In this document: positions 1 to 59,405 of the stretch, piece after piece
How the letters are laid out: each line of letters starts with the position of its first letter
Numbering within the stretch: the first letter of the stretch is position 1
Source of the DNA: an uncultured Isosphaeraceae bacterium
GTDB taxonomy: Bacteria > Planctomycetota > Planctomycetia > Isosphaerales > Isosphaeraceae
DNA: 64,000 nt
Assembly (NCBI GenBank): GCA_963832405.1
Contig: CAWHUG010000001.1
Location: forward strand, 375,021 to 439,020
Reading direction: 5' to 3'
Position numbers and translations under genes: made by a program
Notes under the pieces: model-generated
Seen by the model: the letters and a program-made list of their open reading frames with translations, nothing else
Database searches by the model: none
Told to the model about the DNA's origin: nothing

Positions 1-1606
1 CCTCTCCATCGACGACTTGCAGGGCCACACGCCGACCGCCGACGAGGATCGCGACCGGCTCGACCGTCTGGCCTCGGAGCTGATCGCCACGGTCCATCGC
101 GAGATCCTGCCGCGTCTGCCGCGCGAGCTGCCGCTGGAATCGCGCGAGGCGCGCGATGCCCTGGTGCTGCGTCTGGAGCACGAGATCGACGACATCGGCG
201 GGCGGCTCTTGAACCAGGGCGGCGACGACCTGGCCGATCACCTCGCCGGCCAGTGTGTGCACTCGGAGCTATTACGCACGCTCATCGATTTCAACACCGC
301 CCAGAGTCACGGCGCGGGCGATCGCGCCGTACAGAGCTTCTGGACGGAGATGGCCTCGGTCGTCCCCGAGCTGGAGCGCGATCTCGGCCGGCTCATCGCG
401 AAGGCGAGCCAGGTGCTCCGGCTGCATGACGCCGACCCGATCGAACAAAGGCTCGATCGCCTGGAACGCGGGTTCTGGAGCTTCTGGACGGCCCGCGCCG
501 CGGCGCTCGTCGATACGGGACTGCGCGACTACCTGGCCAAGCGCACGATCAAGAAGGATCTGAAGGATATCTTGTTTGGATATGGCCCGCTTGAGGACTT
601 GCTCCGCACGCCGACCGTCACCGAGATCATGGTGAACGACTCCGAGCATATTTTCATCGATCACAACCACACGATGAAGTGTTCGGGGCGGAGGTTTGTG
701 TCCGACGCGGTGACGCTCTCGATCATGGAACGGATCGTGGCGGCGGTCGGCCGGCGGATTGACAAGTCGAAGCCGGTGGTGGACGCGCGTCTTCCCGACG
801 GCAGCCGCGTCAACGCGGTGATCCCGCCGCTGGCGATTGACGGTCCTTGCCTGACGATCCGCAAGTTTCCCGACCGCTCGATCGACATGGCGACGCTGGT
901 GCGGACGGGCTCGCTGTCGGCGTCGGCCGCGCGGTTCCTGGATGCCGCCGTCCAGAACCGCCGCAACATCATCGTCTCGGGAGGGACCGGCTCGGGCAAG
1001 ACGACGCTGCTGAACTGCTTGAGTGACTGCATACCGGACCACGAGCGCATCCTGACGGTCGAGGACACCGCCGAGCTGCGGCTGCGACATAGCCACGTTG
1101 TGCGGCTCGAAACGCGGGACAAGAACCTGGAAGGGCAGGGGGCCTACACAATCCGCGACCTGGTGAAAAACGCGCTTGCGCATGCGGCCCGACCGGATCA
1201 TCGTGGGAGAGTGCCGCGGGCCGAGGCGCTCGACATGCTCCAGGCGATGAACACCGGCCACGACGGCAGCTTGACCACGATTCACGCCAACAGCCCGCTC
1301 GACGTGATCGGCCGTTTGGAAGTCATGGTGCAGATGGCCGCGGACCTGCCCCTGGCCGCCATCCACCGCCAGATCGCCTCGGGACTCGATCTGATCGTCC
1401 ATCTGGAGCGCGTCAACAACGTGCGCCGGGTGGTCCAGATCAGCGAGCTGACCGGGTTCGACCGCCGCGCGGGGACGATCCGCATCCGCGACCTCTACCG
1501 CATGACCTCGGACAACGGCCCCTTGCGCCCCACGGGCTGCCTGCCGACTTTCATCGATGACCTCGTGACACACGCGGGGCTGTGTTTGGAGACGTTCTAC
1601 GACTGA
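1..1606 (+). CDS. cpaF: Tad/Flp pilus assembly ATPase CpaF/TadA, 5'-partial (the ORF runs off the window start)
   Basis: Walker A 'GGTGSGKTTLL', 'LQAMNTGHDGS' and 'TIHANSP' motifs of VirB11/CpaF ATPases. A +T near 1176 and a -G near 1220 replace 'RMRPDRIIVGECRGAEA' with 'AHAARPDHRGRVPRAEA' and then return to frame. Confidence 0.9.
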   Translation, partial: LSIDDLQGHTPTADEDRDRLDRLASELIATVHREILPRLPRELPLESREARDALVLRLEHEIDDIGGRLLNQGGDDLADHLAGQCVHSELLRTLIDFNTAQSHGAGDRAVQSFWTEMASVVPELERDLGRLIAKASQVLRLHDADPIEQRLDRLERGFWSFWTARAAALVDTGLRDYLAKRTIKKDLKDILFGYGPLEDLLRTPTVTEIMVNDSEHIFIDHNHTMKCSGRRFVSDAVTLSIMERIVAAVGRRIDKSKPVVDARLPDGSRVNAVIPPLAIDGPCLTIRKFPDRSIDMATLVRTGSLSASAARFLDAAVQNRRNIIVSGGTGSGKTTLLNCLSDCIPDHERILTVEDTAELRLRHSHVVRLETRDKNLEGQGAYTIRDLVKNALAHAARPDHRGRVPRAEALDMLQAMNTGHDGSLTTIHANSPLDVIGRLEVMVQMAADLPLAAIHRQIASGLDLIVHLERVNNVRRVVQISELTGFDRRAGTIRIRDLYRMTSDNGPLRPTGCLPTFIDDLVTHAGLCLETFYD

Positions 1607-1621
1607 GAGGAAGGGGTTTTC

Positions 1622-1710
1622 GTAGGGTGGGTCAGCGGCGTCTGCTGCGCAACCCACCATCCGAATATGTCGGTGGGTTGCGCGGCGCAGACGCCGCTGA
1701 CCCACCCTAC
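1622..1710. repeat. Palindromic REP/MITE-like element, family C (GTAGGGTGGG...CCCACCCTAC termini around a nested GC stem)
   Basis: Long inverted repeat read directly from the sequence. Related copies at 2610, 30682 and 35878, a half-site at 4860-4880 and a variant at 10292. Confidence 0.8.
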
Positions 1711-1744
1711 AAGACGGGAAGTGACCCGTGGTGGAGTGTGCCCC

Positions 1745-2702
1745 ATGACCGTGTCCGGTCCCATCAGCGCCCTGTTATCGTCGATCGCTCTCGGGCTGGC
1801 CGTGGCGCTGGCCTTCGAGCCGGGCCTGCGGCTCTGGGACGAACTGGCGCTGCGGCGGGTGCGTGATTTCGTCACGCTCGGGCAATCGGTGGGGATCTCG
1901 GAAGAGCGCATCCGGTCCGGCATGCGGCTCTGGGGAATCCTTCTGGCGCTGTCACCGTGCGCGATCCTGTCGGTGTTCGGCTCGCTGGTGCTGGTGCCGA
2001 TCTGCGGCGGGCTGATCTATCAATCGCCCCGGTGGATTCTGCATTCGGTCATCCAGCGGCGTCGGCGGCGTTTGCGCGATCAGCTTGTCCCGGTCTGTTT
2101 CGCGCTGGCGAACACGGCGCGGGCCGGGCTCAGTCTCGCCCAGGGGTTGCGGCTGGCAAGCTGCGAGGCGCCGGAGCCGATCCGCGGCGAGATCCAGCGG
2201 ATCGTGCGGGAATACTCGCGCGGCCGCCCGCTGGCGCAGGCTATCGGCGATATCTCGGCGCGGCTCGACCTGAACGGCTTCCGCATGTTCGCCGCGGCGA
2301 CGCTCTGCTGCCTGGAGCACGGCGGCCCCTTGACCGAGACGCTCGACAGCCTGGCCCTGTCCGTGCAGGAGAACCAGCGGCTTCAGCTCAAGATGGACAC
2401 GCAGAGCGCCAGCGGACGGCTCACGCTGTGGTGCCTGGGTGTGTTCCCCGTCGTCTTCCTCCTGGTCAACTACCTCATCGAGCCGGTCTCGAGCCGGCTG
2501 ATGGTCACCACCATGCTGGGCCAGGTCTGCCTGACCACGATCATTCTGCTCACCTACTGGAGTGTCCGCATGGGCCTGCGGATCACGAGGTTTGAGAACA
2601 TCCTTTGGCGTAGGGTGGGCACCGCCCGCCATTCGAACCGGCGGCCACGGCGAAGAAGGTGGGCCATGCCCACCCTACAGAAGAGCCTCGACTCGCAAGT
2701 GA
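1745..2702 (+). CDS. tadB: Tad pilus inner-membrane protein TadB (T2SS-F domain), 3' end frame-disturbed
   Basis: TM-rich protein with the GspF/TadB-like core 'RGEIQRIVREYSRGRPLAQAIGDISARL'. The annotated frame reads through the family C palindrome at 2610-2678 and into tadC as far as 2947. A TGA at 2700-2702 in the -1 frame sits 15 nt before the tadC RBS and ATG, so I take that as the likely true stop. Confidence 0.7.
2610..2678. repeat. Family C palindromic element inserted at the tadB/tadC junction
   Basis: GTAGGGTGGGC...GCCCACCCTAC inverted repeat. Confidence 0.8.
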
Positions 2703-2717
2703 CAAGATCCCGGAGGA

Positions 2718-3689
2718 ATGGCCATGTACCCGGAGAGCGCGTCGGTCGCGACCACGCTGATGGCTCTCGAGCTGCTGGCCAGCGTGTTGCTGGGCCTGGG
2801 CGTGCTCGGCGTGGCCTGGCACATCACCGGGATCGTGCTGGCGGACCGGGGCGACGGGCGGCGGTGGGCGTCGTTCGAAACCGCGCGGCGGCAGACGCTG
2901 CGGCAGGCCAACCGGGTCTATCTCTGGTTCGAGCCGCTCGTCGATGAGCTGGCCGAGTACTACGCGACGCGCCGGCCGATGCTGCGGCAACGGATCGAGC
3001 GCGGCCTGCTGGCGCTGCCCGAGCAGCCGCCCTGGACGCCCGCGGAATGGCTGGCCGTGCAGCGGCTGACCGCCTCGGGCGGCATGATCGGCCTGGGCCT
3101 GGGCCTCGGCTGGTTGTGTCATTCCTGCCTCGGCATGCCCGCCCTCGGAATCCTGGGAGCGGCGCTCGTCTGGTTCATCACCTCGCGCCGACCGCTGCTG
3201 GAGCTCGAGGAAAAGGCCAACCGGGTCCGCTCGCAGATCCGCGGCCAGCTTCCGTTCGCCATGGATTTGATGCAACTGATGCTCAAGGCGGGATCGAGCT
3301 TCACCGAGGCCCTTCAGACCCTCGTGCGGCAGAACTGCGGCGCGGCCCTGGCCGGTCATCTGGAGATCGTCCTCCGCGAGATCGAGCGGGGGATCACGCG
3401 GTCCGAAGCACTCCGGCGGCTCCAGTTGCGCCTGAACATGGAAGAGATCAACGAGCTGGTCCTGGCCCTGCGCCAGGGGGACGAGCTGGGCACGCCGTTG
3501 ACGCAGATCCTCGAAAGCCAGGCCCTCCAGATCCGCAACCGGCAGGTGCAGGCGATCGAGAAGGCGGCCGAGCAATCGAAGGTCAAGTTCGCGGGTCCCA
3601 ACACGGTCGTCATGGTCGCCAGCATCATTGCCATGCTGGCCCCCTGGCTCCTCAAGGTGCTCTATGAAGCCACACCACTCTTCCATTGA
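2718..3689 (+). CDS. tadC: Tad pilus inner-membrane protein TadC (T2SS-F domain)
   Basis: GGAGG RBS then ATG. TM segments and a GspF-like 'LPFAMDLMQLMLKAGSSFTEAL' block. Follows tadB in the usual order. Confidence 0.85.
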   Translation: MAMYPESASVATTLMALELLASVLLGLGVLGVAWHITGIVLADRGDGRRWASFETARRQTLRQANRVYLWFEPLVDELAEYYATRRPMLRQRIERGLLALPEQPPWTPAEWLAVQRLTASGGMIGLGLGLGWLCHSCLGMPALGILGAALVWFITSRRPLLELEEKANRVRSQIRGQLPFAMDLMQLMLKAGSSFTEALQTLVRQNCGAALAGHLEIVLREIERGITRSEALRRLQLRLNMEEINELVLALRQGDELGTPLTQILESQALQIRNRQVQAIEKAAEQSKVKFAGPNTVVMVASIIAMLAPWLLKVLYEATPLFH

Positions 3690-4377
3690 GCGCGGAAATC
3701 CCGCCGCCGTACTGCCCCCAACGACGCCGTGGCTGGTCATCCACGCCGGCACGCAGCCGGCCTGTTCGGTCGCGCTCGATGCGCCCGTCGTCCGCGTCGG
3801 CAGCCATGCGAGCTGCGGGATTCGTCTTGCGGACGCCGAGCCGCACGCCTTGACCATCGAGCAACGGCCCCGCGGCGTCCGGGTCCATAACCGGACCGCC
3901 CGCCGCCTGCAACTCGATGAGGAATCCCTCGAACCGGGGACCGCGGCCATCTGGACGCCCGAGACCGTGCTGGTTCTTGGTCCGAGCCTGAGCGTGCGGC
4001 TGGCCCACGCGCCGACGCCGGCCGTTTCGGAATGCCCCGAGCCGAGTGCGGAGACACCCGCGGTGGAGGCGCCGCCCGCGGCCTATGCGTCCCGGCCGGC
4101 GCTGGTGCTCACGATGGTCTTGCTCATGATGGCGACGTGGGTGGTCGGCCTGTTGTTTCAGAGTCGCGGTCCGGTGCCGGCGCGGATCGAGGAAGACCGA
4201 CTCGCCGTTCTCGTGCGCGACCTGCGCCAGTGCGGCCCGGAGGGCCACTACATCGCCCAGGAACTCCAGCTTGCCTTGCAGGATCAGAACCTGGGGCGCG
4301 ACCTCGCCCGTGCGCGATCGACTGCTCCGCTTGAGCGATTGGATCCAGCACAATCATGGACGCCAGAGCCGGGTTGA
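3664..4377 (+). CDS. FHA-domain-like protein with a single TM helix, overlapping the tadC stop
   Basis: 'VVRVGSHASCGIRLADAEPHALTIEQRPRGVRVHNRTARRLQLDE' matches the FHA pattern (G-R ... S..HA.I ... N-T). A hydrophobic helix 'LVLTMVLLMMATWVVGLLF' follows. Confidence 0.55.
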   Translation: MKPHHSSIERGNPAAVLPPTTPWLVIHAGTQPACSVALDAPVVRVGSHASCGIRLADAEPHALTIEQRPRGVRVHNRTARRLQLDEESLEPGTAAIWTPETVLVLGPSLSVRLAHAPTPAVSECPEPSAETPAVEAPPAAYASRPALVLTMVLLMMATWVVGLLFQSRGPVPARIEEDRLAVLVRDLRQCGPEGHYIAQELQLALQDQNLGRDLARARSTAPLERLDPAQSWTPEPG

Positions 4378-4439
4378 TCCCCGGTTCCCGCCGTTCCAGA
4401 CCGTGGTCGACTGGATCGGGAACAACATTTGAAATTCTG

Positions 4440-4890
4440 TCCGGACAGCCCCGAAGGGGCGACAGTCAATAGCCAGGGGCGTCAGCCCCTGGACGGCGAG
4501 ACAAAGCCCCAAAGCGCCTCTCCGCAGGGGACTTTCTCAGCCGGGCGGACAAGTCCCGGACAGTTTCACTAGTGGACGTTCAGACAGTATCCAGGATGCA
4601 AAGGCTTGGGAACATTGGATTTGCTTCAGTGAACCCCTCGACCTTTGCCGCGTAAACTGTCCGCGCCGTTCAGGTGGTTGACCGCCGAGCGTGAGATAGT
4701 GCCCTCCGCAGCCCCTCAGGGGCGACAGAACCCATGGTTTCGCGGGATCTTCTGTCGCCCCTGCGGGGCTCCGGAAGAGGGTGGCGCGGGGACGGGACGG
4801 GTTCCAGGGGCTGACGCCCCTGGCTATTCACTTCCGCCCCTTCGGGGCTGAGAGGCGCGGACGCCGCTGACCCACCCTACGAAGCTACGA
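4440..4890. repeat. Composite palindromic element, family A (about 45-bp terminal inverted repeats AGCCAGGGGCGTCAGCCCCTGG / GCCCCGAAGGGGC, internal palindrome, about 200-bp lower-GC insert) plus a family C half-site at 4860-4880
   Basis: Termini at 4447-4492 and 4804-4850 are exact reverse complements. Compact copies of the same element lie at 27256-27493 and 59170-59405. Confidence 0.8.
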
Positions 4891-5016
4891 AGCCCTCGAA
4901 CTCGAACCGGTCCCCTCCCTGGCAAGTTCACGGCTCACGCAGCGTCCTTACTCCGTGATGGGTCTGGTCCCGCTGCCGAACCGGAGCCAGAGAGGCTCGC
5001 TTCGAGGGAGACCGCG

Positions 5017-8000
5017 ATGCACAACGATTACGAACTGCTCAACCCGATCGGAAAGGGACCGCTGGGGACCGTCTATCGGGGGCACGACTTGATCCAGAAT
5101 CGGCCCGTGGCCGTCAAGGTGCTCCATGCCTCGGTGCGGACACGGCTCCAGCGTCGCGACGACTCCTGGGACCGGCTCCGGCAGGTGGCGCAATTCAGCG
5201 CGTCGCGGCGGGACATGGTGCCCGTGCGAGACATTGATCTCGACTCGGGCTGGATCGTCTCCGACCTCATGCGGGGCCGGGTCCGACTCCGGCACGCGGT
5301 GGCGCCGAAGATCGTGGCCGGCATGATGCGGCAGGTGCTGCGGCCGTTGTCGCACCTGCACACCGATCTGGGCCAGCTCCACGGCGCGATTCATCGCCGG
5401 AACCTGCTCTATGACGACGACGGTTACGTCCGTCTCGCGGACCCGCGCGGGATGGCCCTGGGCGTGCCGTCGCCGCTCTTGAACCTGTGTGCCACGTCGG
5501 GCAATCCCGGCTCGGACGAGACGGGGGCGCACGTCGCCTGCAAGCACATGGCGCCCGAGTGGTTCGACGAGGACTTCGGCCCCGTGGGTCCGGCCAGCGA
5601 TCTGTACGCCCTCGGGCTGACCGCGCTGGAGCTGCTCATGGGACGGCGGTTCGCCCGGCTGTTCCGGGGCATCGGCCCCCAGTCGCTCAATCCGGCGGAT
5701 TCCTGGGACCGCTGGCATCGCGACCCGGCCCGCGCGCTGCCCGGCGCCGAGGGCCTGGTTCCGGGGCTGCCCGAGGATCTCGTCCGGGTCGTCGATGGCT
5801 TGACCCGCAAGCAGGTCGCGGAACGCTACCAGAGCGCTCTCGAAGTGCTGGACGACCTGAGCAACTACCGCAAGATCATCCCGATACGGGTGAAGACGAA
5901 GACGCGCAAAACGTCGCGGCACGACGACGGAGCGTCGCGGCCGACACCCGCGCAGCCGGCCTTGCCCGCGCCGGCGCGCCACGGCCCCATCAAGCCGTGC
6001 GCCGGTCGCCGTGCCCGTCGCGACGGTCGCGCCCGCGCCGGTCCGGCCGACCGTCAAGAACGTGGGCACCCGTTCCCCGGTGCGACTGCGCGTCACCCCG
6101 CCCCCCACGCTGAGCGACTACCTGACTGCGCGGGGGCCAGGCGGTTCAAACCCTGCTGCGGGAGAACCGGGCCAGCCAGTTCGGCGTGGCCATGATCGCC
6201 ATCCTGCTGGCCATCGCCGTGCTCTTCTCCGGACAGGTGCGGAACGAGGTCGAGGCCGAGTTCACCGTCGTCCCGCCCGGCCCGGCCGGCAGCAAGGAAG
6301 TCCACGCCGATCTGACGCTCGACCGGGTCGATCCCCGCACCGGCGCCCATACCCCGGTGCAGTCGCAGATCCGGTTGTCGCAGCACGTGTCCTTCAAGAA
6401 ATCGCTGCCGCCCGGGCGCTATGCCGCCACGGTGCGGGCCCGCCGTTCCGGCCGGTCGAGCAGACCTGCGAGGTCGGGCCGCAAGGCCCCAATCACTTCC
6501 GGTCCGCTACAAGGATCGCCGGTCCCCGATCCGCGAGGTTCAGTTGCCCGTCGAGGAGCCGGTCACGCTCTACCTGGAAGCGCCGGGCTACGAGTCGCGC
6601 CGGCTGAACTTGCAGATCCCCGATGGCGAGGGCCCGTACATGCCCGATGAGCTGGCCGAGCTGACCCGCTCGGCCACAACCGAGCGGCTGATCGTGGTCA
6701 AGACCACTCCCGAAACCGCCCAGCTCACCGTCGACGGCAAGCCGCAATCCTTGCGCACGATCAGCTTATCGACCGCCACCGAGCATACGTTCCGGGCGCA
6801 GGCCGAGGGCTTTCTCGAGACCTCCCAGACGCTCCGCGTGGCGGCCGGCGACCAGCCCCTGACCGTGGCGCTCGACCTGACGCCCGACCAGACGCACCGC
6901 AAGGTCCGGCCCCGGACCCATCCCCGGGCGGTCGTGACGCTCCGTCCCCATGGCCGCCCGGACCAGACCCGCACCTTGCACGACGGCGAGGAGTTCGAAT
7001 ACGCCGTCGGCGCCCGGCTGATCGCCTGCGTGATGCTCGACGGCGCGCTCATGTTGCGCGACCACGACGTGACCGTCGAGCGGGGCGAGGGCGTCCAGGA
7101 GCTGAACCTGACCACGCCCGACCCCGGCCGCGTACCGATCCTCGACTCGCCCTACGCCTTGAGGTTCCAGCCCGGCGGGACGTTCCGCAGCGGCTTCGAC
7201 CCCGTGGAATACGGCGCCATTCTCAAGGAGAAACGGATCACGCGGGCGGGGATCGCCTCCTTGCTCGATCCCGCCGGGGACCACGCGCCGAAACCCAGCT
7301 CGCTGTCCGCGGCGGCGGCATCGCTCCAGGCCGGCAATCTCGACAGCGGCCTCTTCGACCAGGCCCGCATCCACGGCGCCCAGAAAATCTGGGAGAACCG
7401 GCAGCAGTTCCGCGCGTCTCGCCGAACACCACGCCGCCCGCGAGATCGTCCTGTCCCACTTCCACGTCTCGGAAGTGCCCGTGACCTGGGATCTCTGGAC
7501 GGCCGTCATGGGCGCCACGGACCTGCCGGCCGCGGCGAGCCGCGAAGTCGGGTACCTCCAGGCCCACCGGGATGATCCCGCCGTCGGCATCAGCTACGTC
7601 CGCTGGCTGATCTTCTGCCGCCGCCTCACCGAGCTGATGCGGAGCGCAGGCCAAATCGACACGTCTTGCGAACTGACGCCCCCCCATGCGATCGAGGTCG
7701 AGTATCTTCTCCGCGGCGGCGCCCCCGACCCGGCCGAGAGTGAGGAGACCGCCGCCGCTCCCCCGGAGAAAGCGCCGCACCGGGACCGGCCCGATATCGC
7801 CTCTTGGCTTGTGGTCGAGTCCAACCTGGCCGTCTGCCGCAATCGCAAGCAGGCGCTCTCCGTGCTCGATCCGAACCTGCGGTCCAACAACCTGCACGTG
7901 ATGCTCGGGCCGGTCGCCACCTGGACGCTGGACGCCGCCGATCCGGACCATCAATACGTCGCGGGGCCGAGCTATCACACCCTGCCGAATGTGCCGAAGG

Positions 8001-8215
8001 TGCTCGCGTGGTCGGCCTCCTGGCCCGCGCCGGCCGTGTTCGGCCTGCCGGACCGGACCCACTTCGAGTTGCACGACCTGAAAGGGTACTGGCCCTGGCA
8101 GCGCGTCGCCCTGCCCAGCCGGACCAATCCGGAGAACCATGTCGGCCTGTACCTGGTCCTGCGCCCGGTCAGCACCCTGGCCGATCGCCGTCCCGCGGCG
8201 GACCTGCGACCGTGA
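5017..8215 (+). CDS. Ser/Thr protein kinase-fold protein (predicted pseudokinase) with a TM segment, PEGA-like repeats and a degenerate C-terminal FGE-sulfatase domain; at least 4 frameshifts
   Basis: Gly loop 'IGKGPLGTV', 'VAVKVL' and 'MAPEW' are present, but HRD is 'HRR' (5392-5400) and DFG is 'DPR'. TM 'MAMIAILLAIAVLFSG'. PEGA-like 'ERLIVVKTTPETAQLTVDGKPQ'. FGE-like 'VTWDLWTAVMGATDL...EVEYLLRGG'. The frames run 0, 1, 2, 0, 1 along the gene. Confidence 0.7.
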
Positions 8216-8256
8216 GTGAAGCCGCCGGAGAGGACGTCGCAGCCGCGTCGTCGTGC

Positions 8257-8386
8257 GTCCCTGAGCTTTCCAGGTTGAGAATGGGCGATACTGGACTGGA
8301 ACCAGTGACCTCCCTTGTAGGGCGGTTTGGTCTGCGTCCGCCATCTTCAGGAAGAGCAGGAAGGTGATCTGCTCGACGTAGGCCAT
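8257..8386 (-). pseudogene. hsdM: 5' stump (about 43 codons) of a type I restriction-modification methyltransferase gene
   Basis: 'MAYVEQITFLLFLKMADADQ...VPVQYRPFSTWKAQ' matches the HsdM N-terminal block (EcoKI 'YVNELASLLFLKMCKETGQEAEYLPEGYRWDDLKSRIGQ'). It then decays into the antisense of the upstream FGE gene. Based on 15-40 residues only. Confidence 0.4.
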
Positions 8387-8392
8387 GTAACG

Positions 8393-8626
8393 TCACTCCA
8401 TGTACTCCGCGAAGTCATCCAGCGGGGCATCGAAGTCCGGGGCTATCCAGAACGAACGGTCCTTGGCCGTGCCCGGCTGGCACGGCCAGCTCGTGCGGGG
8501 TGGACGGGTCACGATGGCAACGGGCTCGCCATCGCTCGTCAGCACCAACTCCTCGCCGGGGACCATACCGGACACGATCTCGGACGGGCTGGTTTGGGCG
8601 GCGGCCAGCGGCAACGTGCGTGGCAT
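8393..8626 (-). CDS. Antitoxin-like small protein: Phd/YefM-like N-terminus plus DUF2281 C-terminus; no cognate toxin nearby
   Basis: 'LVLTSDGEPVAIVTRPP' (Phd-like) and 'PGTAKDRSFWIAPDFDAPLDDFAEYME' (DUF2281 signature 'G.aKG.i..spDFDAPLeDFkeYM'). No PIN-domain ORF within 1 kb. Confidence 0.55.
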   Translation of the reverse strand: MPRTLPLAAAQTSPSEIVSGMVPGEELVLTSDGEPVAIVTRPPRTSWPCQPGTAKDRSFWIAPDFDAPLDDFAEYME

Positions 8627-9126
8627 GTGTAACTCGCTCTCCGTTAGCATCAGGCATAGGCTCTTGGCCGACTTCGAATGAGCGTGATACCCCATTCTAT
8701 ACCCGTGCGGCGATCGTTCCTCAGTGAGAGTACTCGAAGGAGGATCGGGGAACGTCTCACTCGGGGTTGGGCGAGCGACACCAAAAAGCCGCGTCGGGTC
8801 ACGCCCGCGGAGAAGGAGCCGCTCAGCGAAGCGCGGAGGAGGCCGTGAACGACGACACCGCGCCCGAGGAGAGCCCGCCCGAGGTCGGGTTCCCCGAATC
8901 AACCACAGACAATTGCCCCCATCGGTGAGTTCCGAACATGCACAGAGATAACAGCAGGGTCAACGGCTTGCGTCGGGTGCGTTGGCGCCGGACACTGGTC
9001 TTTACTCGAAAAACTGCCGCAGACGAACGGGCACGAATCGGTAGGTTCAAGAGCGTGAAGACTTTGAGGGGTCTCGGGCCGGAGTAACCCGAAGGTCACC
9101 GAAGAAGGTGTCGCGAAGCGATTCCC

Positions 9127-9705
9127 GTGAACCCGACTTCCGTCAGCCTCATCGACCGGCTCCGGAGGGCCAGCCCGGAGAACCCCGACTGGCTCCGCTT
9201 GCAGGAGATCTACCTGCCGCTGATCCGTCATTGGCTGGGTCGTGTGCCGAGCCTGGGCGATGAGGTCGCCGACCTGGCGCAGGAGGTCCTGATCGTCGTG
9301 GCGCGGGAAATCCCCCACTTCGACCGGCAGCGCGAGGGGTCGTTCCGGGCGTGGCTCCGCCAGGTGACCGTGAACAAAGTCAGGACATACCGCAGGTTAC
9401 AACAACGGCGGCCGGTCACCGGGTTGGATGCCGCGGACGGGTTCCTCGACCAACTGGCCGACCCACACAGCGAACTCGCCCGGGAGTGGGACATCGAGCA
9501 CGACCGGTACGTGGTGGAGAAACTGCTGGCGGTGGTTCGACCGGACTTCAGCGCCACGACCTGGGAGGCGTTCCAAAAGTTCGCCCTCGACGGCCTCCCG
9601 GCCGCGGACGTGGCCCGGGAACTGGGCCTGTCGGAAAATTCCGTGATCCAAACTAAGGCCAGGATTCTCAAGAGGTTACGAGAAGAGGCCGGCGACCTTC
9701 TGTGA
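9127..9705 (+). CDS. ECF-family RNA polymerase sigma-70 factor (GTG start)
   Basis: Sigma-70 region 2 'DLAQEVLIVVAREIPHFDR...FRAWLRQVTVNKV' and region 4 'LPAADVARELGLSENSVIQTKARILKRL'. Confidence 0.9.
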   Translation: MNPTSVSLIDRLRRASPENPDWLRLQEIYLPLIRHWLGRVPSLGDEVADLAQEVLIVVAREIPHFDRQREGSFRAWLRQVTVNKVRTYRRLQQRRPVTGLDAADGFLDQLADPHSELAREWDIEHDRYVVEKLLAVVRPDFSATTWEAFQKFALDGLPAADVARELGLSENSVIQTKARILKRLREEAGDLL

Positions 9706-9731
9706 ATTTTTTGGGATTTTTCGGGTTTTCG
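9681..9731 (+). terminator. Candidate intrinsic terminator of the ECF sigma gene
   Basis: GC hairpin AGAAGAGGCCGGCGACCTTCT overlapping the stop codon, followed by a T-rich tract TGAATTTTTTGGGATTTTTCGGGTTTTC. T-rich runs are rare in this GC-rich DNA. Confidence 0.35.
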
Positions 9732-9841
9732 CGGCATGTCCCCCGTTGTTCCGGCCTTTCTCTTATAGTTGGGCTGGTTTCGGTTTGACGCGGTAAGGTT
9801 TTGCAATGAGCTGAGCCAGCGCAAGAAGCGGACGCCCTACT

Positions 9842-10289
9842 ACCGGATCGAGGGAATCAGGTCTCCATTGTCGGCGGCAAGGGCTATCGCCTGCCGACGG
9901 AGGCGGAGTGGGAATATGCCTGCCGCGCGGGGAGCACGGCAAAGTATCCGTTTGGAGAGGGCGAAGCCGATCTGGGTAAGTATGCCTGGTACGACAAGAA
10001 TTCGGAGGATAAGACGCATCCGGTGGGCCAGAAGCAGCCGAACGGCTGGGGCCTGCACGACATGCTCGGGAATGTCTGGGAATGGTGCCAGGACGGCTAT
10101 GCTACCGATTATTACAAAGCAGCGCCGCCGGCTGACCCGCCGGGCCCTGCCGAGGCCCCGTCCCGGGTGTTCCGGGGCGGTTGCTGGCGCGACGACCCGG
10201 GGTGCTGCCGCCCGGCGTACCGGCTCAGGAGCACGCCGGCGATCCGGTCCTACATTCTGGGCTTCCGCCTGGCCGCAGTCCAGGACTGA
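9842..10289 (+). pseudogene. C-terminal about 140-aa stump of an FGE-sulfatase domain, the remnant of the ECF-associated Ser/Thr kinase; +1 frameshift in a CCC run at 10019
   Basis: 'GYRLPTEAEWEYACRAGSTAKYPFGE' and 'PNGWGLHDMLGNVWEWCQDGY...RVFRGGCWRDDPGCCRPAYR' are canonical FGE/SUMF1 blocks. No kinase domain lies upstream. The open frame starts directly after a stop at 9812. Confidence 0.6.
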
Positions 10290-10291
10290 GA

Positions 10292-12180: not shown

Positions 12181-14535
<2,355 letters not shown>

Positions 14536-14803
14536 CGCGTCGGCCGGGCGCGCCGCGGAGTCGCCCGTCGGCGCAGCCCCCCGGCCGTCAGAGACTTCAC
14601 GGGCCGATCCGGTCTGCAACCCGGGAGAGGGACCAGTGTTCACGAAGGGCGAACTCCATGACACCTCGCGAAGGCCGCCCCCGACCGGGCTGGCAACCCG
14701 GCACCTTGACCGAACGGCCCCCACCCTGGTCATTATAGGATCATGGCCGCTCCGTCGGCGCGAGGAATCTGACCACGGCCCGCCTCATTTCCGGGACGCG
14801 ACA

Positions 14804-19817: not shown

Positions 19818-20563
19818 TCAGCGGCGTTGATTCCAGGCGGCGCTGCGATAGCGTTCCCGCTCGAGCGCGACGGCCCGGGTGCGCTCCTCCGGCGTGACTT
19901 CGACGAAATGCGCCTCCAGGCCAAGCGCCGAGAGCAATGTCCCGCGGAGCGGCTCGACCCAGGACGCAGGGGTCGGATCGAGATCCGCCAGTTCGCGCAG
20001 GCCCGGCAGTTCCGGCGTGCGTCTGCGCGGGCCAGCAAGATCGAGCCGTGCTGGAGGACGGCGGCGTGCCAGCGCCGCTGGGCACTGCCGACCACCTTGC
20101 ACCTCCCAACGACGAGATCCTCCGGATCGCGGTCCTGGAAACAGAGAAACGGGCGGTCGGGACGATCCGGATCATCACCGCGCCGGCGGGCCAGCGCACC
20201 GGCCTTCTGGAGCATGGCGGCGATCGCCGCATGCACGCCCTGGTACAGGTCCACGGCACGGGCCCCGAGGCGATGGGCGCGGGGCACGACCACGGTATAG
20301 GTGATCTCATGCTCATGCCAGATCGCGCCGCCGCCCGTGGCTCGGCGCACGACGGCCGCGCCTTGCCAGCGCGGATCGGCCGTCGCGCTGAACTCCTGAA
20401 AATACCCCAGGCTCAAGGTCGGCTCCGACCAGGCATACGTCCGGATCACGGCCGCGGTCGGCTCCGCGCAGACCGACTCCAGCAACGCTTCATCGAGCGC
20501 CATCTGCGTGGGCCCGGAAGCAACCAGATGCGGCAAGATGCGGCCTTTCCATCGCTCACGCAT
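19818..20563 (-). CDS. Lipoate-protein ligase / octanoyltransferase (LplA/LipM family); one frameshift near 20040
   Basis: 'MALDEALLESV', 'RRATGGGAIWHEHEITYTVV' and 'KVVGSAQRRWHAAVLQHGSILL'. The C-terminal tail is recovered in the other frame (19818-20102). Confidence 0.75.
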
Positions 20564-22027
20564 GACCGTTGTCCGCAGGCGTCCAGCGCAAGCGCGGCGT
20601 CTTGGCTGCGGCGACCTCGTCCGGCCGGCTGATCGGCGTCGTCAAGGGGGCGTCATGCAAGGTCTGGGGGTCCTCGGCGGCGATCTCCAGCAGGACGCGC
20701 GCGAAGGTCTCCAGGGTAGCGCGGCTCTCCGTCTCGGTCGGCTCAATCATGAGCGCCTCGGAGACAAGCAACGGAAAATAGACCGTCGGCGCATGGATGT
20801 TGTGATCCAGCAACCGCTTGGCGATGTCCATCGCGCGGATGTTGCGATCGCGGGCCAGGGTCCGCGCCGAGGCGACAAATTCGTGCATGCAGCGCTCGCC
20901 GAACGGCACCGGGTACACAGGACGGACCAAGCTCATCAAATAGTTCGCATTCAGCACCGCGTGCTCGGCCACCTGCCGCAGTCCGTCGGGCCCCTGGCTG
21001 CGGATGTAGAAATAGGCCCGGAGCAAGATCCCCACGTTGCCGAAGTACGACCGGACCCGGCCGATCGACTGCGGGCGGTCATGATCCAGGAAGAACGTGC
21101 CCTCGGGACGCCGCGCCACGGTCGGCGCCGGCAAGAACGGCGCCAGGGCGCCCGCACCGCGATCGGACCGGCGCCAGGACCGCCCCCGCCGTGCGGTCCC
21201 GAGAAGGTCTTGTGCGGATTGTAGTGCATCAGGTCCACGCCCATCTCGCCGGGGCGGACCACGCCGAGAATCGCGTTCATGTTCGCGCCGTCGAGGTACA
21301 GCAAGGCGCCACGGTCGTGCAGCCGCCGCGCGATCGTGCCGACCTGCGGGTCGAACAGCCCGAGCGTGTTCGGATTGGTCATCATGAACACGGCCGTGCG
21401 ATCGTCGAGCTTGCCCTGCAAATCGTCCAGGTCGACAAACCCTTGCGCGTTGCTCTTGATCGTGACCGCCTCGAAGCCCGCCAGGTGCGCCGAGGCCGGG
21501 TTCGTGCCGTGGGCACTGTCAGGAATGAGGACCTTCGTGCGCGGCTCGCCCCGGCTGCGGAAATACGCCGCGGCGACCAGCAGGGCCGTCAGTTCTCCCT
21601 GCGCCCCCGCCGCCGGTTGCAGGCTGACGGCGTCCAGCCCGGCGATCTCGGCAAGGAACGCTTGCAATTCGTGCAGGATGTGCAACAGGCCCTGCATCGT
21701 CGATTCATCCTGGTAAGGATGGATCGACGCTAACCCCGGGAGTGCGGCCAGCCGCTCGTTGCGCTTCGGGTTGTACTTCATCGTACACGACCCGAGCGGG
21801 TAGAAATTCGTATCGATCGACATGTTGGCGACCGACAGATTGGTGTAGTGCCGCACCACGTCGAGCTCGCCCAGCTCCGGCAAAGGGGGCGGCGCCTCGG
21901 CGCGATACGCCGCCGGGATCAATTCATCGAGCGGCCGCGCGGGCACGTCCGCCGCCGGCACGATCTGGGTGCCGCGGCCGGGACGGCTGGTCTCGAAGAG
22001 CAGGGGGGGTGGATCGAGCTTGTACAT
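20556..22027 (-). CDS. gcvPB: Glycine dehydrogenase (decarboxylating) subunit 2; one frameshift near 21120
   Basis: 'GSCTMKYNP' and 'NPHKTFSGPHGGGGPGAGP' PLP-site blocks. The C-terminal half lies in ORF 20556-21134. Confidence 0.9.
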
Positions 22028-27255: not shown

Positions 27256-27493
27256 ATCCGGAAGAGCCCCGAAGGGGCGGCAGCGCATAGCCAGGGGCGT
27301 CAGCCCCTGGTGGGGAGTGAACGACGCGTCGACGGCGCCCCTCCACAGCCCCGCAGGGGCGACAGAAAGCGAAGCGGCGCCACGGCTTCCGTCGCCCCTG
27401 CGGGGCTGCGGAGGCGAATGGCGCGGTCGCGGTCCCGTTTCCAGGGGCTGACGCCCCTGGCTACACGCGGCCGCCCCTTCGGGGCTAAAACCA
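27256..27493. repeat. Palindromic MITE-like element, family A (compact copy)
   Basis: GCCCCGAAGGGGC / AGCCAGGGGCGTCAGCCCCTGG termini mirrored at the other end, with an internal GGGGCGACAG...CTGTCGCCCC palindrome. Confidence 0.85.
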
Positions 27494-59169: not shown

Positions 59170-59405
59170 TCTGTTCCAAAAGCCCCGAAGGGGCGAAAGT
59201 GAATAGCCCGGGGCGTCAGCCCCGGGAACCGGAAACGACGCGCTACAAGCCCTCTCCGAAGCCCGAAGGGGCGGCCGATGTCTTTGTCCCACAGGCCCTT
59301 CTGTCGCCCCTTCGGGGCTTCGGAGGAAGACTCTCTCGTCGCAGCTTTCCGGTTCCCGGGGCTGACGCCCCGGGCTATTCACTTTCGCCCCTTCGGGGCT
59401 TTTGG
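59170..59405. repeat. Family A palindromic MITE-like element (copy 3)
   Basis: GCCCCGAAGGGGCG...ATAGCCCGGGGCGTCAGCCCCGGG mirrored, with an internal GGGGCGACAG-type palindrome. Confidence 0.85.

Follow-up and report, generated by a model that had tools for sequence, protein, structure and literature searches.

FHA-domain proteins are over-represented in Kil and Tad-like gene clusters, where they have repeatedly been proposed as phospho-signalling links, and none of them has been characterised; those of the Myxococcus xanthus kil clusters are still uncharacterised in the literature. In Kil cluster 2 of M. xanthus (kilG-kilH-MXAN_4649-MXAN_4648), the gene downstream of a pair of GspF-type platform genes specifies a protein annotated as FHA/PrgH-like, the one after it specifies an FHA- and TPR-domain protein with a PknG-like HHpred match, and the KilF ATPase carries an N-terminal FHA domain. 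In the type VIIb secretion system (T7SSb), a bitopic membrane pseudokinase, YukC/EssB (cytoplasmic kinase fold, transmembrane [TM] helix, extracellular domain), is encoded with the secretion ATPase. YukC contacts the FHA2 domain of YukB, and the FHA domain of EssC, which has no phosphothreonine (pThr) site, binds the EssB pseudokinase in a phosphorylation-independent assembly. Here we describe a locus in a 64,000-nucleotide (nt) stretch of contig CAWHUG010000001.1 (assembly GCA_963832405.1; hereafter the window), covering positions 1 to 8215 and their neighbours, in which cpaF, tadB, tadC, a gene for an FHA-like bitopic protein, and a gene for a receptor-like pseudokinase lie in this order on the + strand.

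The locus is best explained as the 3' portion of a Tad (type IVc) pilus locus of Planctomycetota, one that resembles the Kil type. As in Kil cluster 2, two platform genes precede the FHA-like gene, and as in KilF, the CpaF ATPase of related loci has an N-terminal FHA-like domain; MXAN_4649 is likened to the FHA-like protein by annotation and gene position. Unlike in Kil, the partner encoded in Planctomycetota is a membrane pseudokinase with an ectodomain rather than a cytoplasmic FHA-TPR protein, the phylum is a different one, and there is no evidence of predation. The topology and domain logic of this partner are those of YukC/EssB, and the reading that we favour by analogy, at a probability of roughly 0.5, is that a phospho-independent FHA-pseudokinase scaffold comparable to the YukC-YukB pair of T7SSb operates on a Kil-like Tad machine.

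Under the scaffold reading, the gene next to the FHA-like gene in this lineage would specify a receptor-like bitopic pseudokinase that has no catalytic Asp in its cytoplasmic kinase fold and, past the TM helix, carries a putative ectodomain made of a beta-sandwich and a lectin-like part. Binding without phosphorylation would take place between the pseudokinase domain and one or both of the FHA-fold partners (the bitopic protein and CpaF), the resulting scaffold would dock on, or gate, the CpaF-TadB-TadC platform, and input from the envelope or surface would come in through the variable ectodomain, as either sensor or anchor. What is established for this locus is the identity of the genes, the folds, the degeneracy of catalytic and pThr-binding residues, and the synteny; that these domains interact physically, that they do so independently of phosphorylation, and that pilus assembly is affected at all are inferences. 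The analogy has its limits, as T7SSb is a type VII machine with an FtsK-type ATPase found in monoderm bacteria, and its FHA domains occur solely as parts of the ATPase, whereas the lineage of the window also has a separate bitopic FHA protein. Moreover, the top PDB profile matches of the pseudokinase are canonical kinases and include no YukC chain.

The synteny of the locus was assessed in 19 other distinct public loci, found via TadC-based and protein-based look-ups (L001 to L019, of which L012 and L013 are one locus, and the contig of P0003, P-numbers denoting public protein records); all named records among them are Planctomycetota metagenome-assembled genomes (MAGs). In 19 of 19 loci (L001 to L011, L012/13, L014 to L019, and the P0003 contig, with L002 represented by a contig-end fragment), an open reading frame (ORF) of the FHA-like family, 240 to 345 aa in length, lies directly 3' of tadC. 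The gene that follows is readable in 12 of these loci and encodes a homologous pseudokinase in 6 of them; in the remaining loci it is cut off or unreadable. The proximity of tadC and the FHA-like gene that the initial annotation proposed to look for in related genomes is thus universal in this sample, and that of the kinase gene extends to only half of the readable loci. The FHA-like protein is therefore a fixed component of the tad locus, and the pseudokinase, being absent downstream in about half of the readable loci, is a recurrent accessory rather than a core component.

The FHA-like gene occupies positions 3664 to 4432 on the + strand and encodes about 255 aa once a +1 frame change near 4309 is corrected. 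Its ATG at 3664 overlaps the tadC stop by 26 nt, as initially annotated, and as read, the ORF stops at 4377; its true end, in frame 2 after the shift out of frame 1, is at 4432, and the frame-2 continuation VRDRLLRLSDWIQHNHGRQSRVDPRFPPFQTVVDWIGNNI, up to its stop codon, agrees with relatives to the last residue. The encoded protein comprises an FHA fold (approximately 3727 to 4008), a TM helix (approximately 4096 to 4155), and a periplasmic three-helix tail that extends to 4429. A search of a word-indexed database for homologues returned the protein itself alone, which would have made the gene an orphan, a status rejected by the 120 relatives that an exhaustive HMMER search recovered; a profile search of the word-indexed database with the family yielded 4 proteins.

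Assignment of this protein to the FHA superfold comes from the family and its structure. Taken alone, the window protein matches only Yop-YscD_cpl in Pfam (E = 0.005, 17 bits against a cut-off of 33), with no match to PF00498 and none in NCBIfam, so that the single-pass FHA-like protein of the initial annotation holds in its fold, TM helix, and overlap, but not as a significant hit of its own. The family, which contains 120 representatives at an E of ≤1e-3 (nearly all 230 to 295 aa), amounts to about 120 clusters at 50% identity and has neither a Pfam nor an NCBIfam model. Among 29 sampled members, at an E of ≤0.01, Yop-YscD_cpl is matched by 12 (best E, 5.9e-9) and FHA by 2. The PDB profile search with the full family profile returned one spurious match and nothing else. 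The AlphaFold2 (AF2) model built on the family alignment has an overall predicted local distance difference test (pLDDT) score of 83, exceeding 94 over residues 21 to 110, and displays a beta-sandwich (the eleven-stranded FHA fold), a TM helix at residues 145 to 164, and three C-terminal helices. The best explanation is that the protein is a conserved inner-membrane accessory subunit in which a single TM helix links the FHA fold in the cytoplasm to a small helical domain in the periplasm.

The residues through which FHA domains contact pThr were placed by aligning the family profile to GarA and were counted over 119 members. The Arg of the "GR" motif is Arg in 2 of 119 members and Ser in 99, and the Ser of "SxxH" is Ser in none and L, V, I, or A in 105. 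The structural residues of the fold are retained (His in 111 of 119 and Asn in 108), and three further positions are near-invariant and specific to the family: R44 (113 of 119), R77 (107, with Lys in 8 more), and W97 (115). With both the Arg of GR and the Ser of SxxH missing across the family, the canonical pThr pocket is, as judged from this alignment, absent, as it is in YscD, PrgH, and EssC. The premise of the initial annotation, that the FHA domain binds phospho-Thr and that the arrangement hence represents phospho-signalling, is supported neither by these counts nor by the neighbouring kinase domains, all of which are degenerate.

Two other secretion systems bear on the nature of this protein. 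Like SctD (YscD/PrgH) of type III secretion systems, it combines an N-terminal cytoplasmic FHA fold devoid of pThr-binding residues with a single TM helix, but only about 85 residues, predicted to form three helices, are periplasmic, as opposed to the large periplasmic part of SctD with its three ring-building motifs. As in class III CpaF and in the Fha1/PpkA pair of type VI secretion systems, an FHA domain lies on or beside a secretion or pilus ATPase with a membrane Hanks-type kinase nearby; in type VI secretion systems, PpkA is active and Fha1 binds pThr, whereas the proteins considered here have no catalytic Asp and no canonical pThr contacts.

The pseudokinase gene spans positions 5017 to 8215 on the + strand and encodes about 1065 aa when its segments are stitched across five frame changes. 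Its kinase domain, the N-terminal 290 aa (5017 to approximately 5880), matches Pkinase at an E of 1.6e-13 and has a Hanks fold in which the catalytic Asp is replaced, in keeping with the initial annotation of a catalytically dead Ser/Thr-kinase fold; of the FHA and kinase profile matches whose absence would have refuted that annotation, the one to kinase is obtained in the window itself, and those to FHA come from the family. The window sequence QLHGAIHRRNLL...VRLADP aligns with KIHRDIKAANVL...VKLADF of MST3, and the catalytic loop reads HGAIH in place of the HRDIK of MST3, with Asp replaced by Ala and the catalytic-loop Lys by His. The same HGA occurs in L014, L015, and P0123 (55 to 60% identity), and by this comparison the lesion is a trait of the family and not an indel artefact. 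Downstream of the kinase domain are a Pro-rich linker and the TM helix noted initially (approximately 6180 to 6236; VAMIAILLAIAVLF), and the topology of both the stitched protein and its L014 orthologue is that of a cytoplasmic pseudokinase, a TM helix, and an extracellular domain. A metagenome scan with the pseudokinase alignment found nothing.

Assignments within the ectodomain are plausible at best by sequence. The PEGA-like beta-sandwich region (approximately 6240 to 7200) contains two segments that match PEGA (PF08308) with 15 to 17 bits (E = 0.02 and 0.004), under the cut-off of 20.8, as well as a CarboxypepD_reg match (E = 0.003); over all PEGA matches, E ranges from 0.004 to 0.04. The C-terminal domain (7415 to 8212) resembles FGE-sulfatase (PF03781) at an E of 0.033 in the window and 0.01 in L014, both under the 23.3-bit cut-off, and hhalign against three genuine FGE domains gave an E of 0.033 and a probability of 1.5%, although the order of the motifs (W..FC..L; LP..E.EY..RGG; GxV..W) is colinear with that of FGE domains. 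A PDB search with this domain gave no match, and its single-sequence AF2 model (pLDDT, 35) is too low in confidence to use. The PEGA repeats and degenerate FGE-sulfatase domain named initially are therefore visible as weak resemblances, all of them below the Pfam cut-offs.

Orthologues of the pseudokinase follow the FHA-like gene in L014 (1084 aa) and L015, and L008 encodes a homologous pseudokinase with an ectodomain of He_PIG/Ig repeats. In L009 and L010, both Fimbriiglobus MAGs, a related degenerate kinase domain shares one polypeptide with an FHA domain and another degenerate kinase domain. In L008, L009, and L010, it is other catalytic positions that have degenerated, but the kinase domains share the C-lobe motifs W..WH and DLYxLG, and every kinase domain encoded directly after an FHA-like gene is catalytically degenerate. 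The homologous N-terminal domain thus occurs at the same position with three C-terminal architectures: PEGA/FGE-like (window and L014), He_PIG Ig repeats (L008), and an FHA domain with another degenerate kinase domain (L009 and L010). In the Fimbriiglobus proteins (L009, 11792 to 13906; L010, 11651 to 13786), the internal FHA domain is of the same non-canonical "GS...PRHA" type, and the second kinase domain has HRS or HRN for HRD and VAVR or VALR for VAIK, making each a double pseudokinase.

These architectures bear on the alternative that the FHA-like protein alone is a structural inner-membrane subunit of the Tad machine, anchoring CpaF in the manner of YscD/PrgH, and that the pseudokinase is an unrelated neighbour in some lineages. 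Such a view accommodates the presence of the FHA-like gene in every locus and of the pseudokinase in about half of the readable ones, as well as the 584-nt spacer with a mobile repeat that parts the two genes in the window, and planctomycetes are rich in Ser/Thr kinase genes. Chance adjacency would hardly account, however, for N-terminal domains that are homologous to one another (34% identity between the window and L008, with an E of 1e-41, against approximately 30% and an E of 1e-13 for the best generic kinases) and that recur with three unrelated C-terminal architectures, or for the Fimbriiglobus version, in which the pseudokinase is part of one protein with an FHA domain that is non-canonical in the same way; in L014, in addition, the spacer is only 35 nt. 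We consider an unrelated neighbour unlikely.

Several observations weigh against the scaffold reading. Near-invariant R44 and R77, together with S47, lie on the ligand-binding loops of the FHA fold, and by their position the family may possess a non-canonical phosphate or anion site. The pseudokinase retains the G-loop (GKGPLGTV), the VAIK Lys (VAVKV), the catalytic-loop Asn, and the DFG Asp (DFG reads DPR), a set of residues with which nucleotide binding or atypical catalysis would be possible. A different gene follows the FHA-like gene in L001, L004, L005, L006, L012/13, and L016, about half of the readable loci, and Pfam-scored Pkinase genes lie near some loci, with one of 1597 aa upstream in L012 and two adjoining L019, where a convergent Pkinase-AAA gene on the opposite strand is downstream of the FHA-like gene. 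Planctomycetes encode many Ser/Thr kinases, so some of the adjacency may be due to chance.

Some of these observations favour true phospho-signalling, the idea of the initial annotation, in which an active Ser/Thr kinase from elsewhere would phosphorylate either a component of the Tad machine or the pseudokinase in its Thr/Pro-rich linker, and the FHA-like domain would read the mark via a non-canonical pocket and thereby switch pilus assembly. The position of R44, R77, and S47 on loops of the FHA peptide-binding face and the kinase genes close to L012 and L019 speak for such a pathway, and the literature discusses the FHA proteins of kil clusters as candidate phospho-dependent regulators. Opposing it, the canonical Arg is absent from 117 of 119 family members and the canonical Ser from all 119, no kinase domain encoded next after the FHA gene has an undamaged catalytic site, Pfam places the family closest to the non-phospho-binding YscD type, and neither a PP2C phosphatase nor an active kinase was seen between 1 and 12 kb of the window. 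Phospho-signalling is an improbable account of the locus. The inactive kinase acting as a scaffold, also suggested initially, fits the data, so that the initial interpretation is partly supported, with its scaffold retained and its pThr signalling doubtful.

The tad genes themselves were correctly named, apart from the fact that cpaF is cut by the edge of the window. The cpaF/tadA secretion ATPase gene (2 to 1606, + strand, lacking its 5' end) matches Pfam T2SSE at an E of 1.4e-49 and the NCBIfam TadA family at an E of 4.8e-87, the latter under that model's curated cut-off. Its product is 75% identical to CpaF of L014, and window position 2 aligns with residue ~100 of that 632-aa protein, placing about 100 N-terminal residues outside the window. 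In 13 related loci the N terminus of CpaF is an FHA-like domain, the corresponding part lying outside the window, and in L014 this domain matches Yop-YscD_cpl (E = 7.8e-5) and FHA (E = 0.002). Based on these relatives, the CpaF of the window would count as a class III CpaF, which is a CpaF with an N-terminal FHA domain in the sense of PMC12019362.

The two platform genes are on the same strand. That of TadB (1667 to 2608; T2SSF E = 2.6e-16) encodes a protein 70% identical to TadB of L014 and has lost its stop: the window has TGG at 2606 to 2608 where L014 has TGA after ...RITRFEHLV. The ORF as read continues to 2947 with an Arg-rich tail, and the coding signal in third-position G+C (GC3) is gone past approximately 2610. 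An end by frameshift (frame 1, "...HEV" and stop) was ruled out, since the L014 protein terminates in the window's own frame. The gene for TadC (2718 to 3689; T2SSF E = 3.8e-12) encodes a protein 57% identical to that of L014 and 32 to 38% identical to those of 11 Planctomycetota MAGs. Upstream of the tad genes, Peptidase_A24 is present in the closest loci, L014 and L016, and PF13400 (Tad) is present in L014 and L019. Neither a secretin nor TadZ was recognised among the precomputed Pfam matches of L014, L016, and L019, and the window starts downstream of where these genes, like those for a prepilin peptidase and for Flp pilin or pseudopilins, would lie.

Several genes in this region are broken into different frames. 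The G+C content of the region is approximately 67%, and GC3 provides a clear coding track. In cpaF, a compensated double frameshift (a pair of 1-nt indels) at approximately 1177 to 1228 scrambles the conserved RMRPDRIIVGECRG motif, and the universally conserved motif RMRPDRIIVGECRGP is legible there in frame 0 alone, the ORF itself being in frame 2. The pseudokinase, initially annotated as a single 1050-aa protein, is not a single ORF: stops occur at 6195, 6650, and 7575, and the coding track passes through frames 1, 2, 0, 2, 1, and 2, with junctions near 5998, 6134, 6441 to 6445, 6499, and 7414, five frame changes that the initial annotation overlooked. The L014 orthologue is one intact ORF of 1084 aa, colinear with window frames +1, +2, +3, +1, and +2, and the fragment P0122 spans the first junction (near 5998) in one frame. 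The stitched protein has no internal stops and is 39 to 57% identical to L014 over its length. The initial observation is thus partly confirmed, in that the genes and folds are real, and the ORF structure and two of the domain calls are not as stated.

These breaks are most likely assembly indel errors rather than gene decay, because motifs essential to cpaF and the housekeeping gene gcvPB are also affected, because several junctions are located in G/C runs, and because the frame segments keep a strong GC3 signal, no internal stops, and 39 to 57% identity to an intact orthologue, all indicated by the sequence. The opposing possibility is that the pseudokinase, FHA-like, and tadB genes are real pseudogenes in a decaying locus, formed through frameshifts, a lost stop, and insertion of a miniature inverted-repeat transposable element (MITE). 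Nine indel-type frame changes and one lost stop within 8.2 kb, the repeat element between the FHA-like and pseudokinase genes, the truncated products in the public annotation of this contig (P0001, 237 aa; P0121, 392 aa), and the long, intact state of other genes in the window (e.g., the 867-aa gene at 12184 to 14784) would all be compatible with decay. Decay is nonetheless very unlikely, in that the most conserved catalytic motif of cpaF is hit by a compensated pair of indels 50 nt apart, gcvPB and an FGE gene are hit as well, several junctions fall in G/C runs, and strong GC3 and substantial identity in every segment are not expected of old pseudogenes.

Similar interruptions are evident elsewhere. 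The glycine cleavage gene gcvPB (20556 to 22027, - strand) is read as two overlapping ORFs in different frames (20951 to 22027 and 20556 to 21134), with the break directly after the conserved HKTFSGPHGGGGPGAGPIAV motif, and constitutes independent evidence for indel errors in the contig. At 9127 to 10290 (+ strand), an extracytoplasmic function (ECF) sigma factor (Sigma70_r2 E = 2e-11) precedes a canonical FGE-sulfatase domain of which only the C-terminal half is present (9.8 to 10.3 kb; profile positions 99 to 254; E = 3.6e-36 after frames 1 and 0 are stitched near 9850); the two may be what is left of a gene pair coding for a sigma factor and an FGE domain. The orthologous FHA-CpaF gene of L016 (6197 to 8103; GCA_046350015.1) is also called as two ORFs, of 271 and 364 aa, indicating that frameshifted calls of long GC-rich genes are not unique to the contig of the window.

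The spacer between the FHA-like and pseudokinase genes, initially given as a gap of about 650 bp, is 584 nt in the window, compared with 35 nt at the same place in L014 and 163 nt in L015. A gap therefore exists, and most of it (405 nt; 4446 to 4850) is a palindromic, MITE-like repeat element, an inverted repeat of 94% complementarity without assigned strand. Its terminal inverted repeats, of 46 to 48 nt, are the Acido-Lenti-1 motif of Rfam (RF01687), scoring 55 to 56 bits at 4446 to 4850 against a gathering score of 37. Further copies of the repeat lie at 27265 to 27486 and 59181 to 59400, with RF01687 scores over copies of 48 to 58 bits, and the matches always form divergent pairs that are 128 to 311 nt apart. 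Acido-Lenti-1, described as a small RNA (sRNA) motif, behaves here, in a Planctomycetota genome, like the inverted repeat of a MITE-like element.

A promoter and terminator scan of positions 4300 to 8700 detected nothing over background. The peptide GDTGLEPVTS suggested a tRNA near 8300, which was ruled out by ARAGORN and Rfam, neither of which found one there. Directly past the pseudokinase gene, at 8240 to 8653 on the - strand, are a 19-residue fragment resembling HsdM_N (E = 0.008) and a small ORF resembling DUF2281 (E = 7.5e-5), which look like remnants of mobile or defence DNA. The intact gene 4 kb downstream (12184 to 14784, - strand) encodes a sensor histidine kinase of 867 aa that has four PAS domains (PAS_9 E = 9e-56; HATPase_c E = 2e-23).

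For users of this assembly, there is a practical warning: indels are frequent in the contig, and the public record gives the products of these genes in truncated form. More generally, the locus defines a compact and widespread FHA-like family that is fixed after tadC, that has lost the canonical pThr contacts, and that in several lineages is paired with degenerate kinase domains. A structural scaffold, as in the YukC-YukB pair, is a testable alternative to phospho-signalling, with R44, S47, R77, and W97 of the FHA-like protein and the W..WH C-lobe motif of the pseudokinase as the residues of interest. A bolder and rather doubtful proposal is that the pseudokinase-FHA scaffold, so far described only for T7SSb (YukC-YukB), was independently recruited to the Tad/Kil-type pilus motor of Planctomycetota, where a cue from the envelope or surface would reach the FHA-bearing CpaF ATPase via a dedicated bitopic FHA subunit, by way of a receptor-like pseudokinase whose ectodomain can be exchanged (for a PEGA/lectin-like or an Ig-repeat one or, in their place, an FHA-kinase fusion in the cytoplasm). 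If this is true, the FHA proteins of kil and tad clusters in general would be structural adaptors and not phospho-readers.

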